NCBI GenBank assembly: GCA_964481585.1
Contig: CAYZVT010000072.1
Span: 1-15,313 of the forward strand
DNA length: 15,313 nucleotides
Direction of reading: 5' to 3'
Origin: an uncultured Pirellulales bacterium
GTDB lineage: Bacteria > Planctomycetota > Planctomycetia > Pirellulales > CAYZVT01
Below, one piece after another: positions 4,791-15,270 of this stretch. Position 1 is the stretch's first letter; every line of letters begins with the position of its first letter. The translations under genes and the position numbers were made by a program. The notes beneath the pieces were generated by a model. The model did not search any database and was not told the origin of the DNA. It worked only from the letters and a program-made list of their open reading frames with translations.

Positions 4791-4820
4791 GGGTGCCACT
4801 CTCTGGCCTGTCCAGCAGTG
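4791..4820 (+). repeat. palindromic repeat module H1, forward orientation, degenerate copy (GGGTGCCACTCTCTGGCCTGTCCAGCAGTG)
   Basis: Read directly. Consensus is GGGTGCC ACTGCTGG CTTGT CCAGCAGTG. This copy has an extra base and 2-3 substitutions in the left arm. It starts 10 nt after the stop of the pyruvyl transferase gene. Confidence 0.8.
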
Positions 4821-4909
4821 CTTCCAAACGGGCGTGCGTAATTCTCTCTCGATTCTGTAGCAACGCGTTCCGGGGAAGCGAATCACTTGGAGGCGACGGC
4901 AAACGACGG

Positions 4910-4938
4910 CACTGCTGGACCAGCCAGCAGTGGCACCC
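4910..4938 (-). repeat. palindromic repeat module H1, reverse orientation (CACTGCTGGACCAGCCAGCAGTGGCACCC)
   Basis: Reverse complement of the consensus with one mismatch. A second GGCACCC follows at 4945-4951. It lies 30 nt from the nth stop. Confidence 0.85.
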
Positions 4939-5640: not shown

Positions 5641-5674
5641 GAGGTGTCTCGGAGTTAGTTGCTAAGTCGCGGGA

Positions 5675-5698
5675 CACTGCTGGCTTGGCCCAGCCGTG
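5675..5698 (-). repeat. degenerate solo copy of the H1 hairpin (CACTGCTGGCTTGGCCCAGCCGTG)
   Basis: Shares CACTGCTGGCTTG and a decayed right arm. It lies between the nth start and the end of the 87-aa membrane gene. Confidence 0.5.
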
Positions 5699-6264: not shown

Positions 6265-6293
6265 GGGTGCCACTGCTGGCTTGTCCAGCAGTG
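6265..6293 (+). repeat. palindromic repeat module H1, forward orientation (GGGTGCCACTGCTGGCTTGTCCAGCAGTG)
   Basis: Exact consensus copy. The 9-bp arms CACTGCTGG / CCAGCAGTG around a 5-nt centre form a perfect hairpin. Confidence 0.9.
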
Positions 6294-6374
6294 CCGTCAA
6301 CGAGCCTCACGGTGGCGCGTCTTGCCACGTCGTTCTCAGGCCAAGCAAATTGCCCCGGCATTGTCTGTCCGTCA

Positions 6375-6403
6375 CACTGCTGGACAAGCCAGCAGTGGCA
6401 CCC
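6375..6403 (-). repeat. palindromic repeat module H1, reverse orientation (CACTGCTGGACAAGCCAGCAGTGGCACCC)
   Basis: Exact reverse complement of 6265-6293, 81 nt away. Confidence 0.9.
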
Positions 6404-6432
6404 GGGGCACGGGCGAGACGCCCGTGGCACCC
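6404..6432 (-). repeat. palindromic repeat module H2, reverse orientation (GGGGCACGGGCGAGACGCCCGTGGCACCC)
   Basis: Hairpin CACGGGCG-AGA-CGCCCGTG followed by GGCACCC, immediately abutting the H1 copy. Its reverse complement occurs at 9738-9762. A third GGCACCC follows at 6447-6453. Confidence 0.8.
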
Positions 6433-6459
6433 TTCTTCCGTCACTGGGCACCCCGCGCG

Positions 6460-9890: not shown

Positions 9891-9919
9891 GGGTGCCACT
9901 GCTGGCTTGTCCAGCAGTG
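9891..9919 (+). repeat. palindromic repeat module H1, forward orientation (exact consensus)
   Basis: Identical 29-mer to 6265-6293. Confidence 0.9.
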
Positions 9920-10056
9920 CGCCTGGTGAGCATGCGCTAGCCGATCGGTTTTGCCCTGGAAAGAAGGGACGAGGAAGCTCGGCCCCGCAGGCCGATGTTT
10001 CCTCGGTTTCGCATTGCCGCAACAGAATCAAGCGGCAAATCAGGATCGGTGGAGGG

Positions 10057-10085
10057 CACTGCTGGACAAGCCAGCAGTGGCACCC
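10057..10085 (-). repeat. palindromic repeat module H1, reverse orientation (exact)
   Basis: Identical 29-mer to 6375-6403. It ends 4 nt before the kinase stop codon (10089-10091). Confidence 0.9.
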
Positions 10086-10088
10086 AAT

Positions 10089-11537
10089 TTAAGCCTGGGC
10101 GGTGGCGGTGAGCTTGGCGAGCGCTTCGCGCAGTTGCCGCAGCTTGATCGGCATGGTGGCGACCAAGCGGTGCCCGTTGCTCTGGGCGCTCGACTTCCAG
10201 TTGCGCTGGCGTTCGCTCAGCAGCAGCAGCGCGGGCACGTTTTTGAGATCGTTCCGCTGCCCAAAATCGTTGAAGGCCTCGACCGCGCTTTCGCCGAGCA
10301 TGCCGCTGCTAAAGAGCACCACGTCGGCCACTTGGCTATCGTCGGCAAAGCGCTGGGCGGCGCGCTGCGGATCGCTCGTGACGAGCACGCGATAGCCGCT
10401 CTTTTTGAGGCTGTCGCGAAAGAGGTTTTGCATCTTCACGTCGCCTTCGACGACCATCACCGTGCGCTGCTGGCTGTTGTCGCCCTTCAAGGCGCCTTCG
10501 CCCGCCTCTTCGGCGGCGCTTTCGCGCGCGAGCACGCCGCGCAGATCGGTCGCCAACTCGCCCGGCGTCTGATAGCGGCGGTCGGGATCGAAGCTGAGCG
10601 CCTTTTTGACGACCAGGGCAATCGAGTGCGGCAGATCCGGCTTGACCTGCAAGATCGGCGGGATTTCGCGGAAGCGGCTTTTGCGCAGCCGCTGCGAGCG
10701 CTCCCGCGTCTCGACCAACGGCGCTTGCCCGGTGAGCATGTGGTAGTAGATGCAGCCGGCGAAAAAGATGTCGCTACGGGCATCGCCTTTACGCACGCCG
10801 GTCGAGCGTTCCAGTCCGGCGTAGTCGATCGCGCGGGGGTTGTCGCTCTTTTGGATTACCTCGTCCGTCGCGTTCAGATCGGTGCCGGCCAAGCCGAAAT
10901 CGACCAGCTTCGCCTGCCCGAGGCTGGAAACGAGCACGTTCGACATTTTTAGGTCGCGGTGCGAGATGCCCCGGCCGAAAGCGTAGTCAAGTCCGCCGGC
11001 GATATCGAGCATCAGCCGCGTCGCTTCGAGTGGCTCGCAGCTTTTGCGGATGCGGACGAATTCGAGCAGATTGCGCCCCTCGACGAACTCCATGACCAGG
11101 TAATGGTTGTTCCCCTGCGAATCGACTTCGTAGATCGGGACGATGTTCGGATGCCGCAAGCCCTGGCACATCACCCCTTCGCGGTGGAAGCGGTCGGCTT
11201 CTTCTTTGAGTTCGCTGTAGCGTTTGCGAAGTACCTTGACGGCGACTTGTTTCTTGCCGAGCCGGTCGGTGGCCCGGTAGACGCGCGCAAAGGTGCCGGT
11301 GCCCACGAGATAGAGAACTTTGTAGTCCCCGTAGTAGAACGTGGTGCGGTCGCGGGCAATCAGATGCTCGATCTGGTAGAAGGTGAGCAAGTCGCGGCGG
11401 AGGAGCAACTGGCGGAACTCGTCCAGGCTGACGTTCTGGCTGCCGAACTCGCCCCAGATCTCGCGGAGCTGCGTCTCGTCGAGCAGATTCAGGTTCAGCG
11501 CATGCTGAGCCAGTTCCTCTGCTGACGTAATGGCCAT
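10089..11537 (-). CDS. Ser/Thr protein kinase (Hanks type) fused to a C-terminal receiver-like (pseudo-REC) domain
   Basis: ATG at 11537 (MAITSAEEL...) is preceded by AGGGAG 4 nt upstream; an alternative ATG lies at 11558. Kinase motifs are present: VGTGTFARV (G-loop), VAVK, HRDLKMSNVLV, DFGLA, SDIFFAGCIYYHMLTG, DPDRRYQT. The C-terminal 120 aa (TVMVVEGDVKMQNLF...YRVLVTSD...ADVVLFSSGMLGE...VPALLLLSERQ...MPIKL) has the REC topology, with the conserved T/S and K present. The phospho-acceptor Asp is replaced by Ser (VLFSSGM where VLLDxxMP is expected). Confidence 0.85.
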   Translation of the reverse strand: MAITSAEELAQHALNLNLLDETQLREIWGEFGSQNVSLDEFRQLLLRRDLLTFYQIEHLIARDRTTFYYGDYKVLYLVGTGTFARVYRATDRLGKKQVAVKVLRKRYSELKEEADRFHREGVMCQGLRHPNIVPIYEVDSQGNNHYLVMEFVEGRNLLEFVRIRKSCEPLEATRLMLDIAGGLDYAFGRGISHRDLKMSNVLVSSLGQAKLVDFGLAGTDLNATDEVIQKSDNPRAIDYAGLERSTGVRKGDARSDIFFAGCIYYHMLTGQAPLVETRERSQRLRKSRFREIPPILQVKPDLPHSIALVVKKALSFDPDRRYQTPGELATDLRGVLARESAAEEAGEGALKGDNSQQRTVMVVEGDVKMQNLFRDSLKKSGYRVLVTSDPQRAAQRFADDSQVADVVLFSSGMLGESAVEAFNDFGQRNDLKNVPALLLLSERQRNWKSSAQSNGHRLVATMPIKLRQLREALAKLTATAQA

Positions 11538-11547
11538 GGGACTCCCT
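11538..11547 (-). promoter_or_regulatory. AGGGAGTCCC immediately 5' of the kinase ATG (11537)
   Basis: Reverse complement of the plus strand GGGACTCCCT. Same 10-mer as 12556-12565. Confidence 0.45.
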
Positions 11548-11701
11548 TTACGAATCATTTTTCCGATTTGCCTGCTCCCCTAGATCGTATCCCGGATGCT
11601 CATCGAGAGAAGTTCGCCGCGTACTTGTTAATTTATTCCGGCGGCGCGCCGGCCACAATTGATTCGCCGAGCCGGGGGGCGAGATTGCCCAGCCGGGCGG
11701 C

Positions 11702-11780
11702 TTTTTCCCCGCTCTGGCAGCCGCTGGGGAAAAGCCAGCACCCTGCTACCAGTTCCGGTAGCAGGGTGCGCCGGGGTTTT
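11702..11780. terminator. twin GC-rich hairpins with flanking T runs; candidate bidirectional intrinsic terminator / insulator between the coiled-coil ORF and the kinase gene
   Basis: Hairpin A is TTTTTCCCCGC-loop-GC(T)GGGGAAAA (11702-11733). Hairpin B has a perfect 12-bp stem, CACCCTGCTACC-agttcc-GGTAGCAGGGTG (11739-11768), followed by CGCCGGGGTTTTGGG. On the minus strand hairpin B is followed by CTGGCTTTTCCCC. Both T-tracts are short, so this is not a textbook terminator. Confidence 0.35.
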
Positions 11781-11865
11781 GGGAATGGGGCGTGCGCGAT
11801 AGCTAGCGGTGCGATCAGCAGAGGCGGGAGCCGAAAAAAGGCGCCGACGGCAGCCCCGGCCGAGC

Positions 11866-12153
11866 TTACGCCTCGTATTCTTCGAGCTTTTGGCGGTAGT
11901 CGTCGCGCTCGCGGCGGGTCGCTTCCAGGTCGAACATGAGATACTTCATGTCGAGCCGCAACTGGCCGAGCGCATCTTGCACCAGCGTCAGAATCCGCCG
12001 CCGCCGCTGCGTGCTCTCCGCCACCCGATCCACCAGCGGTTCGAGCGAGTCGCGGTATTGAGCCGGCAGGGCCGCGATCGCCGCTTGCAGGCGGAGGAAG
12101 TCGGCGGGCAGTTGTTCTTGAGCGGTCGGGGCAGGACGCGAGGTGTCGTTCAT
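11866..12153 (-). CDS. small hypothetical protein, predicted coiled coil (95 aa; possible N-terminal extension to 12228)
   Basis: The ATG at 12153 is preceded by GGAGAA 9-14 nt upstream. An alternative upstream ATG at 12228 is preceded by AAGGG. The C-terminal half is charged and helical (LDMKYLMFDLEATRRERDDYRQKLEEYEA). No recognisable family. Confidence 0.45.
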   Translation of the reverse strand: MNDTSRPAPTAQEQLPADFLRLQAAIAALPAQYRDSLEPLVDRVAESTQRRRRILTLVQDALGQLRLDMKYLMFDLEATRRERDDYRQKLEEYEA

Positions 12154-12470
12154 AAGCAAGGTTCTCCAGGATGCGAGTTCGGCAGCCACTAGAGCAGACG
12201 CTGTGCCAAAAGGCGGCCGCCGCGCCATGCGTCGCCCTTAACCTCTTTGCCGAGACTCGGTTACGCTCTAGCCTGCAACTCGCGGTCACCGTCGCAGTGC
12301 GGGGGCGAGGGTGAAGATTTACAACGTTTGCTCTGGGCCTATCTCGCAAAGGCTGTTACAAGCCCACCTTACGACGAACTTGCAAATTTCGCAACAAGTT
12401 GGTCTTTCGCCACACGCGGGTTTCCAAAAATCAACGGTTTTTCGCAGTTTGGCCCTCCTGGTAGTCCGAC

Positions 12471-12537
12471 ATAGCCGGCGAGCAACGCTTGCCGGTGCGC
12501 GGCGGTGTTGAACCGGCGAGCGTTGCTCGCCGGCTAT
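12471..12537 (+). promoter_or_regulatory. 19-bp perfect inverted repeat (ATAGCCGGCGAGCAACGCT ... AGCGTTGCTCGCCGGCTAT) with a 29-nt spacer; leader hairpin or operator upstream of the large secreted-protein gene
   Basis: Read directly. The spacer contains a further GCCGGT/ACCGGC pairing. It ends 19 nt before the AGGGAG ribosome-binding site at 12556 and overlaps the alternative GTG/TTG start candidates at 12505-12525. Confidence 0.5.
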
Positions 12538-12555
12538 CCCCCTTCCGTCCTTCGC

Positions 12556-12565
12556 AGGGAGTCCC
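12556..12565 (+). promoter_or_regulatory. AGGGAGTCCC (Shine-Dalgarno-like plus conserved spacer) before TTG 12568
   Basis: The identical 10-mer, read on the minus strand, abuts the kinase ATG (plus-strand 11538-11547). Confidence 0.45.
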
Positions 12566-12567
12566 GA

Positions 12568-15270
12568 TTGTCACGCGGTCGCTGCCCGTGGGTGCTGACG
12601 GTTCTGGCCGTGCTTTTCAGCGGCGGCGTGCTGCATGCGCAGTCCACGTTTCGCGAGGATTTTGAGGGGCCGGCGGCAAGCTGGAGCGTGGTGAGCAGCG
12701 ATGCCGCCTACCGCATCGCCGCTCAAAACCGCGTCCGGCAAGGAGCCTACTCGGGCGAGGCCTGTGAGCAGGTGCAACTGCTCGGCAACAACGGCTCGTT
12801 TGTTTATCTGGGGCATCCGATTCGCCGGGCACGGGTGATCCGCGAACTCGCGCCGAGCCTGTGGCTCAAGGCCGACCGGCCGGGGCTGCAAGTCTTTGCC
12901 CGTGCCGTGCTGCCGCGCACGGAAGACCCCCGCACCGGCAAGCCCGTCACCACGCTGCTGCCGGGCGACCGTTATCTCCAGCCGGGCCAGTGGCAACCGC
13001 TCGCGGTCCGCGACGTGCCGGGGCTGCTCGCCCGCCAAGTGCGCGTGCTGCGCAGCGAACTTGGCCCGCAGGTCGATCCGCGCGAGGCGTACATCGACCA
13101 ACTCCTGGTCAACATCTACGGCGGTCCCGGGCTGACAACGGTCTCGATCGACCGGCTCGAAGTGGCCGGCGTCGTCGAGCCGCAGCCCGGCGCGCACGCC
13201 TATCTGGCTGCCGCCTATGGGCAGCCCGCCACACAAAGCACCTTTAACGCGCCGGTCCGCCAGGTGCAGTTGCAAGGCGCGCTGCTCACGGTCGATGGCC
13301 GGCCCGTACTGCCGCGGATCATTCAGCATCGCGGCGAGCCGCTCGATGAATTGGCGCGGCTCGGCTTCAACGTCGTGCAACTCGCCGAGCCTGCCACCGC
13401 CGCGCTGCTGGCCGAAGCGCGGCGGCTGGGCATCTGGCTCATCGCTCCGCCGCCGAGCGTGGCGCAGCTGGAGCAAGCCGCGATCACGCCCCAGTACGAT
13501 GTGGTCATCGCTTGGAGTCTCGGCAGCCATTTGACGGGCGAGGATCTCCAGCGGGTGCGCGCGTTGGCCCGCGCGCTGCGCCGCCACGATCCGCGCGCCG
13601 GGCGTCCGCTGGTGGCCGACTGCCATTCCGATTTGCGCAGCTACAGCCGCATCGCGGACGTGCTGATCTTGGGGGGCAGCCCGATCGGTACGAGTTTGCA
13701 ACTGAGCGACTACCCGCAGTGGCTCACCGAGCGGACGCAGTTCGCGCGGCCCGGCACGCCGATTTGGTGCCGTATCCAAACCGACTACGATCCCGGCCTC
13801 ACCGCGCAGTGGCGCACGTTCGCCGGCGCGCCGGTGAGCGCGGCGCTCGACAGCGAGCAGATTCGCTTTCTCGTGTACGCTTCGCTCGCCGCCGGCGCGC
13901 GGGGCTTTGTGTTCGATTCGCACCGGCCGCTCAACACTTCCGATGCGACGACGGCCGAGCGGCGGCTGGCGCTGGAGATTGCCAACCTCGATCTGCGGCT
14001 CATCGAGCCGTGGGCCACGGGCGGCAGCACGCGCACCTCGGCGCATGCTTCCGATCCGAACGTGAGCGGCGCGATGATTCAAACCGAGCGGGCGCGGCTG
14101 CTCCTGCCGCTGTCGGCTTACCCGGACGATCAGTTCGTGCCGAACCGCCCCCCGGCCGGGCCGCTGGCGTTTGTCGTGCCGGGCGTGCCGGAGTCGAACA
14201 ACGCGTACGCACTCACGCCCGCGAGTTTGCCGCCGCTGCGGCATCAGCGCGTCACGGGCGGGATTCGCGTCACCCAAGAGCGCACCGATTCCAGTTCCAT
14301 GCTGCTCATGACGAGCGATGCCCACGTCATTAGCAGTTTGACCCGCGAAATCGCGCAGACGCGCCGCCGCGCGGCGGAACTCAAACGGCAGCAGGCGATG
14401 CAGCAGTTCGCCGCCGTGGAGCAAGTCCACCGGCGGCTCACCCCCGGCACGGTTGTCGCCGTGCAGTGCGACCGCTGGCTGGAAGAAGCGCGGGCGAGTC
14501 TTGCGCAGTGCCAAGTGCTTTGGGCGGCGAGCGATTTTTCCGGCGTCTACCGCGAGGCGCGGCGCACGCTCGGCGCGCTGGGCCGCGTGCAGCGGGCGCG
14601 CTGGAACGAATCGGTGGCGACGTGGCCGGCGAAGATCACCAGCCCGTTCTCGGTCACGTATGCCACGCTCCCGTACCACGCCCAGTTCGCCGACCGGCTG
14701 CGGCAGAGTCGCGTGCTGCCGTCGCGGCTGCCGGCGGGCGACATGGAGCGGCTCGACGAAATGCTCGCCGCCGGCTGGAAGCATGTCGAGCATCCCGTTC
14801 CCGGCGTGAGCACGAAGGTGGAGTTGTCGGTCAGTGAACCGCACAGCGGGCGCACCGCGCTGCGGCTGGCCGTGTGGCCGCACGAGGCGGAACAAGCCGT
14901 CACGGCTGTCGAAACCGCGCCCGTCTGGATCACGACCCCGCCGGTGACGCTCGAAGCGGGGCAATTGGTCCGCATTCGCGGCTGGGTCCGCGTCCCCCAG
15001 CCGATCACCGGCAGCCGCGACGGGCTGCTGATCGTCGATTCACTCAGCGGTCCGGCCTTGGCCCAGCGGGTGCGCGAAACGTCCGGCTGGCAAGAGTTCA
15101 CGCTCTACCGCTTCGCCCCCGAGTCCGGCCCGCTCATCGTCACCTTCGCTCTGACCGGCTTGGGCGAAGTCTATCTCGATGATCTCAGCATCGAGCCAAT
15201 CGAGCGCGCCGCGCGAGGTGCTGCCGCGCAAGCGCAGCGCCGACTCGCACCACGACTGCCGCAGCGCTAG
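12568..15270 (+). CDS. large secreted protein (about 900 aa) with N- and C-terminal CBM-like / galactose-binding-like jelly-roll regions flanking a possible glycoside-hydrolase-like core
   Basis: The ORF has no in-frame ATG near its 5' end. Candidate starts are GTG 12505, TTG 12508/12523 and TTG 12568. The TTG at 12568 is preferred because AGGGAG (12556-12561) lies 6 nt upstream and gives a clean signal peptide (LSRGRCPWVLTVLAVLFSGGVLHAQS). The N-terminal region (STFREDFEGPAASWSVV...GAYSGEACEQVQL) and C-terminal region (GWVRVPQPITGSRDGLLIVDS...IVTFALTGLGEVYLDDLSIEPIE) look like carbohydrate-binding beta-sandwiches. The middle (LARLGFNVVQLAEP...RRLGIWLIAPPP) weakly resembles a TIM-barrel glycoside-hydrolase-like fold. 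Stop TAG at 15268-15270. Confidence 0.7.
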   Translation: MSRGRCPWVLTVLAVLFSGGVLHAQSTFREDFEGPAASWSVVSSDAAYRIAAQNRVRQGAYSGEACEQVQLLGNNGSFVYLGHPIRRARVIRELAPSLWLKADRPGLQVFARAVLPRTEDPRTGKPVTTLLPGDRYLQPGQWQPLAVRDVPGLLARQVRVLRSELGPQVDPREAYIDQLLVNIYGGPGLTTVSIDRLEVAGVVEPQPGAHAYLAAAYGQPATQSTFNAPVRQVQLQGALLTVDGRPVLPRIIQHRGEPLDELARLGFNVVQLAEPATAALLAEARRLGIWLIAPPPSVAQLEQAAITPQYDVVIAWSLGSHLTGEDLQRVRALARALRRHDPRAGRPLVADCHSDLRSYSRIADVLILGGSPIGTSLQLSDYPQWLTERTQFARPGTPIWCRIQTDYDPGLTAQWRTFAGAPVSAALDSEQIRFLVYASLAAGARGFVFDSHRPLNTSDATTAERRLALEIANLDLRLIEPWATGGSTRTSAHASDPNVSGAMIQTERARLLLPLSAYPDDQFVPNRPPAGPLAFVVPGVPESNNAYALTPASLPPLRHQRVTGGIRVTQERTDSSSMLLMTSDAHVISSLTREIAQTRRRAAELKRQQAMQQFAAVEQVHRRLTPGTVVAVQCDRWLEEARASLAQCQVLWAASDFSGVYREARRTLGALGRVQRARWNESVATWPAKITSPFSVTYATLPYHAQFADRLRQSRVLPSRLPAGDMERLDEMLAAGWKHVEHPVPGVSTKVELSVSEPHSGRTALRLAVWPHEAEQAVTAVETAPVWITTPPVTLEAGQLVRIRGWVRVPQPITGSRDGLLIVDSLSGPALAQRVRETSGWQEFTLYRFAPESGPLIVTFALTGLGEVYLDDLSIEPIERAARGAAAQAQRRLAPRLPQR

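Follow-up and report, generated by a model that had tools for sequence, protein, structure and literature searches.

The window analyzed here is a 15,313-nt stretch of contig CAYZVT010000072.1 from an uncultured Pirellulales bacterium, in which a very stable 67-nt hairpin (positions 12471-12537) lies shortly upstream of a gene for a 900-aa predicted secreted protein. The hairpin is probably a doublet of repetitive extragenic palindromic (REP)-type units within the variable portion of the 5' leader, i.e. a dispersed repeat and not a conserved control device. This assignment was made because the anatomy of the element, its dispersal next to unrelated genes, the tag-out pairing of its units, the lack of a target-site duplication, and its absence from orthologous leaders all match such repeats. 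The family, with the tag ATAG or GTAG and the palindrome CCGGCGAGC-AAC-GCTCGCCGG, is most likely a previously undescribed member of the REP-type repeats. The features of the element and of the gene behind it are as follows:

12471 to 12537, no strand: whole element, an inverted doublet of a 25-nt tagged palindrome with the tags outward, forming a 67-nt hairpin
12471 to 12495, plus strand: left unit with tag ATAG (12471-12474), stem CCGGCGAGC (12475-12483), loop AAC (12484-12486), and stem GCTTGCCGG (12487-12495)
12496 to 12512, no strand: spacer TGCGCGGCGGTGTTGAA of 17 nt, whose end bases T12496 and A12512 pair, with four more apical pairs; it contains GTG 12505
12513 to 12537, minus strand: right unit, reading ATAG-CCGGCGAGC-AAC-GCTCGCCGG on the minus strand
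12556 to 12561, plus strand: Shine-Dalgarno-like AGGGAG between the hairpin (19 nt away) and the TTG start (6 nt away)
12568 to 15270, plus strand: gene for the 900-aa predicted secreted protein with TTG start, a glycoside-hydrolase-like barrel with flanking beta-sandwich domains, conserved in Pirellulales

Anatomy and folding of the element

Each arm consists of a 25-nt unit, in which the 4-nt tag ATAG is followed by a 9-3-9 palindrome (CCGGCGAGC-AAC-GCTYGCCGG); the two units face in opposite directions, have their tags on the outside, and lie 17 nt apart. The centres of the two palindromes, each of which is a near-perfect 21-bp dyad, are 38 bp apart. The left unit has one G.U pair in its own stem, and the right unit has no mismatch to the canonical palindrome and is identical to units of other Planctomycetota metagenome-assembled genomes (MAGs). 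Alternative folds are possible: two small hairpins (-16.3 kcal/mol for the left and -18.4 kcal/mol for the right unit alone) or a single long one. The element is flanked by GTCCGAC on the left and CCCCCTT on the right, with no direct repeat and hence no target-site duplication.

The 19-bp perfect inverted repeat described in the earlier note turned out to be real and larger than described. The 19-mer ATAGCCGGCGAGCAACGCT occurred exactly twice in the window, at 12471-12489 (plus strand) and 12519-12537 (minus strand), and no match was found in 200 dinucleotide shuffles even with three mismatches permitted. A repeat finder delimited arms of 26 nt (12471-12496 and 12512-12537) that were 96% complementary and separated by 15 nt. 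The arms pair without a break over 26 bp, apart from one T/C mismatch, and four further apical pairs follow; the 6-bp inner pairing that had been set apart from the 19 bp exists, but as part of this one stem. The mismatch becomes a U.G wobble in plus strand RNA and an A.C mismatch in minus strand RNA. For the RNA of positions 12465-12545, a minimum free energy of -60.1 kcal/mol was calculated versus -32.0 ± 3.3 kcal/mol for shuffled sequences (z = -8.5, 0/200); the minus strand RNA folded less well (-54.6 kcal/mol) because of the A.C mismatch. Folding of the hairpin region as DNA gave -36.1 kcal/mol (z = -7.4). As the earlier note had it, the hairpin of approximately 67 nt ends at 12537, 19 nt before the putative ribosome-binding site AGGGAG.

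It is unlikely that the hairpin is a lineage-specific cis-regulatory RNA of the 5' leader that tunes translation or mRNA decay, acts as a U-less attenuator, or switches between the two small hairpins and the long one. Its high stability so close to the Shine-Dalgarno sequence would suit such a role, as would the existence of two alternative folds, the sole arm difference that is a G.U pair in plus strand RNA and A.C in the other strand, and a conserved promoter-like block upstream, from which the hairpin is probably transcribed. However, the sequence directly 3' of the hairpin (CCCCCUUCCGUCC) contains no U-tract, and a terminator scan of 11800-12900 made no call at the hairpin. Neither a U-run nor a competing antiterminator or leader peptide, as expected of intrinsic terminators or attenuators, was present. 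The Shine-Dalgarno region showed no significant sequestering fold (z = +0.9), and folding downstream of the hairpin was not significant. A search of Rfam gave no match to the hairpin at the gathering score, the mark of a known cis-regulatory RNA; a permissive search returned microRNA-precursor matches only (16-30 bits versus cut-offs of 70-90), which were discarded as spurious. Together with the absence of the hairpin from all five orthologous leaders and the occurrence of the 25-nt unit at the 3' ends of unrelated genes elsewhere (both below), these results speak against the dedicated translational or attenuation-type control proposed in the earlier note.

Dispersal of the unit and its absence from orthologous leaders

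Copies of the unit were sought with the pattern RTAG plus 15 nt in a collection of one genome per species (185,579 species), which does not contain the MAG of the window itself. Among the 21 matches obtained, 17 were coding coincidences in which the palindrome was not continued. The remaining four completed the 21-nt palindrome, all in two Planctomycetota MAGs, and agreed with the tag and palindrome in 25/25 nt. In MAG JBCCQE01, each of the three loci (L011, L021, and L022) contained a second perfect copy in inverted, tag-out orientation at a distance of 103-163 nt start to start, giving six perfect units over three unrelated extragenic loci. In MAG JBCCOW01 (L019), one unit was found on its own, flanked by an aquaporin gene and a gene convergent with it. 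The genes flanking the copies (ilvD and genes for a 2-hydroxyacid dehydrogenase, a thiamine pyrophosphate enzyme, an aquaporin, and superoxide dismutases) have no relationship with one another or with the window locus, and tblastn of the window proteins against the unit-bearing loci revealed no genes in common. Convergent genes flank some of the copies, and others sit directly on a stop codon; the second unit of L011 is placed 37 nt ahead of the next ATG, much as in the window. In L011 (242-245) and L021 (4818-4821), the TAG of the tag is itself the stop codon of the upstream gene. The spacers, with 17 nt in the window and 82, 112, and 142 nt in the L011, L021, and L022 set, differ in length and sequence.

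The ATAG or GTAG tags of L011, L019, L021, and L022 were imposed by the RTAG search pattern. The tag ATAG was also present in metagenome loci that had been retrieved without a tag requirement, namely L024, L029, and L044, which are copies of one locus, and L034. These loci came from a metagenome scan for the bare 21-nt palindrome, in which 23 matches were obtained, mostly single hairpins with unrelated flanks and in some cases T-runs; these single hairpins are probably convergent terminators. The L034 contig carried a doublet, with a degenerate inverted partner 132 nt away. The 25-nt unit gave no match in viral contigs.

Orthologues of the 900-aa gene allowed the leader itself to be compared. 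The closest locus (L001, 67% protein identity) covers only part of the intergenic region, and the genes upstream of it were not seen; it shares upstream DNA with the window (23 nt identical at 12189-12211, and clearly alignable sequence at 12310-12420) and has no hairpin. Four further loci (L047-L050, approximately 45% identity) have retained the gene order, with a Ser/Thr kinase gene and a small gene on the minus strand and the divergent 900-aa gene on the plus strand. The small protein was called at 93-97 aa, except for 166 aa in L048. In the alignment of these six intergenic regions (window, L001, and L047-L050; proteins approximately 45-67% identical), neither the hairpin nor a comparable inverted repeat was found in any of the five orthologous regions, so that the conservation check of the inverted repeat suggested in the earlier note speaks against a conserved device. 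Conserved intergenic blocks included AGCAGA..TGCC and the following:

12329 to 12373, no strand: conserved block TGmTCTGG-N8-CGCAAA-N4-TGnTAnAAG-N7-TTACG, with invariant columns across the six loci, upstream of the hairpin

The hairpin lies outside every conserved block, downstream of the promoter- and enhancer-like blocks and in the variable part of the region. In the orthologues, TAnAAG and the annotated start were separated by 79, 79, 102, 123, and 144 nt, compared with 211 nt in the window. Subtraction of 67 nt gives 144 nt, the distance in the closest relative, and fits the insertion of a 67-nt element; with the hairpin removed, the window and L001 were equal in length (104 versus 104 nt). 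By our own count to the conserved coding motif, the two differ by only 7 nt.

In another orthologue (L002, 61% identity), a different 19-nt inverted repeat was observed (CGCCAAGGCGCAAAGACGC at 4-22 and GCGTCTTTGCGTCTTGGCG at 140-158, with 117 nt between the arms). It is located just upstream of the signal peptide, and the gene caller ran through it to an upstream ATG. It may represent another repeat element at a like position.

Several observations weigh against the assignment to REP-type repeats. The 15 kb of the window contain one doublet of the hairpin family, and neither a REP-associated tyrosine transposase (RAYT) nor another Y1 transposase was found among the 17 window open reading frames (ORFs) scanned against Pfam. 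The tag in the window is ATAG instead of the canonical GTAG, and the partner copies in MAG JBCCQE01, found without tag constraint, carry GCAG, GCAG, and AAAG. The spacers differ wholly between doublets, unlike those of a REP doublet forming a hairpin (REPIN) that replicates as a whole, and REPs have been reported to be rarer between divergent genes (PMC3733652). The bare palindrome is not diagnostic, because most metagenome matches were single hairpins with other flanks. Finally, the sequence after approximately 12465 could not be aligned with the closest orthologue (flank alignment score of 5.0 versus 5.5 for the null). Since the flanks are not significantly alike and the 7-nt difference stands, insertion as opposed to replacement, as well as the boundaries of the event, is unproven.

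We consider it unlikely that the unit is kept identical by a conserved protein or nuclease and not by selfish copying, the pairs serving as intergenic punctuation (RNA processing, termination, or relief of supercoiling) and the leader copy being an exapted control point. This possibility was raised because the identical 25-nt unit occurs in different Planctomycetota genomes, nearly always in tag-out pairs and with unrelated spacers. The second palindrome family of the window (below) is, moreover, shared with phage-like contigs. Quite unlikely, too, is a pair of palindromic sites for a dimeric DNA-binding protein that regulates the divergent promoters or has a genome-wide role through which the motif is preserved. 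The dyad symmetry of each unit and the identity of the usually paired units between different Planctomycetota genomes would agree with this, and REPs of Escherichia coli are known targets of a protein, gyrase (PMC3733652). However, the sites are not conserved at the orthologous promoters, though other blocks are, and the element lies approximately 260-340 bp from the sigma-54-type promoter of the divergent gene. Other copies are found between convergent genes and on stop codons, and the asymmetric tag and loop are kept in orientation, a constancy that a symmetric dimer site does not require. The operator function for the divergent promoters that had been offered as an alternative in the earlier note consequently finds no backing in an element that lies outside the conserved blocks and whose units occur elsewhere between convergent genes and beside unrelated housekeeping genes. 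A one-off local palindrome, generated by a replication template switch or hairpin-primed duplication and resembling other genomes through chance convergence of GC-rich terminator-like hairpins, is highly improbable: near-perfect arms do suggest a young event and the bare 21-nt palindrome occurs in many unrelated metagenome contigs with other flanks, but coincidence does not explain 25/25-nt genome matches that are limited to Planctomycetota and form tag-out doublets three times in one MAG.

For the REP-type assignment, we envisage the following course of events. The units would have been spread by a RAYT acting on the hairpin in single-stranded DNA, a mechanism that would leave no target-site duplication, and the gap of only 17 nt would let both units fold together as one long hairpin. 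A sigma-70 promoter scan of 11800-12900 made no call at the hairpin, so the transcription start can only be inferred; it may lie near 12370, driven from the conserved upstream block. The hairpin is probably part of the transcript because it lies downstream of this promoter-like block, and would be carried in a 5' leader of approximately 200 nt of the glycoside-hydrolase-like gene. There, the near-perfect duplex of approximately 30 bp would make a good substrate for RNase III; in the DNA, the repeat could extrude as a cruciform between the divergent promoters. Any effect of the element on expression of the 900-aa gene is probably incidental. Its likeliest route would be a change of mRNA fate as with bacterial interspersed mosaic elements (BIMEs) or Correia elements: transcribed repeats of the BIME, Correia, Neisseria miniature insertion sequence (NEMIS), and enterobacterial repetitive intergenic consensus (ERIC) types can alter mRNA fate, e.g. 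when RNase III cleaves them or transcription is attenuated (cited in PMC3733652).

These findings call for caution, as even a striking, perfectly paired hairpin in a planctomycete leader can belong to a dispersed palindromic repeat and need not be a riboswitch-like or operator element; comparison of orthologues quickly separates the two. They extend the small set of REP families known from Planctomycetota by an undescribed family of tagged palindromes and provide a case of a REP-type doublet that probably lies within a 5' leader. Should the transcript be processed at the hairpin, the locus would show, as a natural experiment, how expression is reshaped by the insertion of a repeat.

The downstream gene, its divergent neighbours, and a second repeat family

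The ORF behind the hairpin lacks any ATG for more than 500 codons, in line with the missing ATG start recorded in the earlier note, and the TTG at 12568 favoured there is supported as its best start. The N-terminus read from this codon (LSRGRCPWVLTVLAVLFSGGVLHAQ) contains a 25-aa signal-peptide-like sequence, and AGGGAG lies 6 nt upstream. The TTG puts the conserved FEGP motif at residue 32, compared with residues 28-37 in four orthologues that have an ATG start at the equivalent place, and it is the annotated start of an identical 900-aa database protein (P0001). An exact-sequence look-up found the protein on no other contig. The mechanical ORF start, GTG 12505, was rejected: it lies in the hairpin loop without a Shine-Dalgarno sequence, and it would give an N-terminus longer than in most homologues, in which approximately 43-45 residues precede the conserved motif, similar to P0002 and P0007. 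There was no sign of a lost ATG farther upstream, and the gene is intact with a GC content at third codon positions of 0.84.

A homologue search with the 900-aa protein gave 148 homologues, whose source names, where given, were Planctomycetales, Planctomycetaceae, Pirellulales, Pirellulaceae, and Thermoguttaceae. Searches of Pfam, NCBIfam, and PDB sequences gave no match. An AlphaFold model based on 36 homologues had a mean predicted local distance difference test score of 88.8, and its secondary structure was read as an N-terminal beta-sandwich, an alpha/beta barrel, a beta domain, a helical bundle, and a C-terminal jelly roll. The best Foldseek matches of the model in the PDB were modular glycoside hydrolases with carbohydrate-binding modules (CBMs), at approximately 10% identity. 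The label CBM-bearing given earlier has no counterpart at the sequence level; on the model, a secreted, CBM-like protein is a reasonable description at the fold level only.

On the other side of the intergenic region, three features were assigned:

12193 to 12208, minus strand: sigma-54-type -24/-12 promoter TGGCAC-N5-CTGCT, with the ATG (12153) of the divergent small gene approximately 40 nt downstream
11866 to 12153, minus strand: divergent 95-aa gene of no known family, preceding the Ser/Thr kinase gene in conserved order
10089 to 11558, minus strand: Ser/Thr kinase gene with a weak C-terminal receiver-domain match

The motif TGGCAC-N5-CTGCT had this sole match in the window (0.03 expected), and the same motif was found at the homologous place in 5/5 orthologous loci (L001 13-27, L047 1271-1285, L048 1245-1259, L049 1224-1238, and L050 1270-1284). 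Upstream of this promoter, at a distance of 120-180 bp, follows the conserved block at 12329-12373. Its TGnTAnAAG resembles an extended -10 element, and the block may provide a promoter to the 900-aa gene, act as an enhancer of the divergent sigma-54-type promoter, or do both. Its reading as a plus strand sigma-54 promoter was rejected, as counted from the sequence, because the GG-GC spacing falls short by one base and the -12 element is unsuitable. The window at 10089-15270 and L047-L050 represent a conserved Pirellulales neighbourhood of a kinase, a protein of approximately 95 aa, and a divergent glycoside-hydrolase-like protein.

A second family of tagged palindromes was present in the window:

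4792-4938, 6265-6403, and 9891-10085, no strand: three intergenic tag-out inverted doublets of the unit GGGTGCC-ACTGCTGG-CTTGT-CCAGCAGT-G

The spacers of these doublets (81-131 nt) are dissimilar, and the hairpins fold at -73 to -90 kcal/mol. With three such doublets in the same 15 kb, the genome of the window is rich in elements of this kind, in support of the REP-type assignment. A degenerate copy was observed near 5660-5690. Adjoining the 6265-6403 doublet, a hairpin with a different stem (CACGGGCG-AGA-CGCCCGTG, 6407-6433) ends in a GCACCC tail as in the second-family units. The 29-nt unit was found exactly in 11 stretches (L051-L061) from nine IMG/VR contigs with a GC content of 57-67%; in L055 (633-661 and 1412-1440), it adjoins genes whose products look phage-structural, without confirmation from a family search. 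The palindrome is common to planctomycete-like chromosomes and phage-like contigs. Neither the sequence of the hairpin unit nor that of the second family was found in any paper of the library searched. The conserved sigma-54-type promoter with its upstream block in this gene neighbourhood, and the palindrome family shared with phage-like contigs, may outrank the hairpin in biological use.

Comparison with known repeat systems

Intrinsic terminators and leader attenuators share the GC-rich leader hairpin with the element described here, which lacks their U-run, leader peptide, conserved alternative pairing, and conservation in orthologues. The BIMEs of E. coli, the Correia/NEMIS elements of Neisseria, and the enterobacterial ERIC sequences likewise are transcribed inverted repeats that neighbour genes and pair into long duplexes; they possess conserved internal sequences or linker motifs of their own, and Correia and ERIC elements are longer and generate target duplications. 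Miniature inverted-repeat transposable elements have a conserved core within terminal inverted repeats and a target-site duplication, whereas the core varies between copies of the present family and no duplication was found. REPINs (Bertels and Rainey 2011, PMC3116915; PMC3337134) consist of two inverted REP units with a short spacer that form one hairpin of approximately 70 nt, as observed in the window. REPIN copies share their spacer, however, and because the spacers of the hairpin family (17, 82, 112, and 142 nt) are without similarity, the element falls outside the strict REPIN definition.

REP units are short stem-loops of 20-40 bp that leave no target-site duplication, and the same was found here for a unit with a 9-bp stem, a 3-nt loop, and a 4-nt tag. 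A genome with REPs contains numerous scattered, mostly extragenic units and a cognate RAYT gene (Y1 or IS200-like transposase) that they typically flank. The GTAG REPs and their HH dimers (Di Nocera, De Gregorio and Rocco 2013, PMC3733652), e.g. GTAG-20/21 of Rhodopirellula baltica and the SMAG repeats of Stenotrophomonas, have the same 21-nt stem-loop with an unpaired 4-nt tag. The present unit differs in its tag (ATAG, and GCAG or AAAG in some partners) and in the rarer position of the window copy between divergent genes, and its sequence is unrelated to anything retrievable from the supplements of that study. HH dimers, to which the doublet of the window corresponds in this reading, are inverted REP units that may fold separately or as one large stem-loop; here, too, the units are opposite with their tags outside, the spacers are variable, the location is extragenic and often right after a stop codon, the target is not duplicated, and the dimer can form two hairpins or one. 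In R. baltica, itself a member of the Pirellulales, GTAG-tagged REP families occur together with tyrosine transposase genes that are flanked by the corresponding repeats (PMC3733652).

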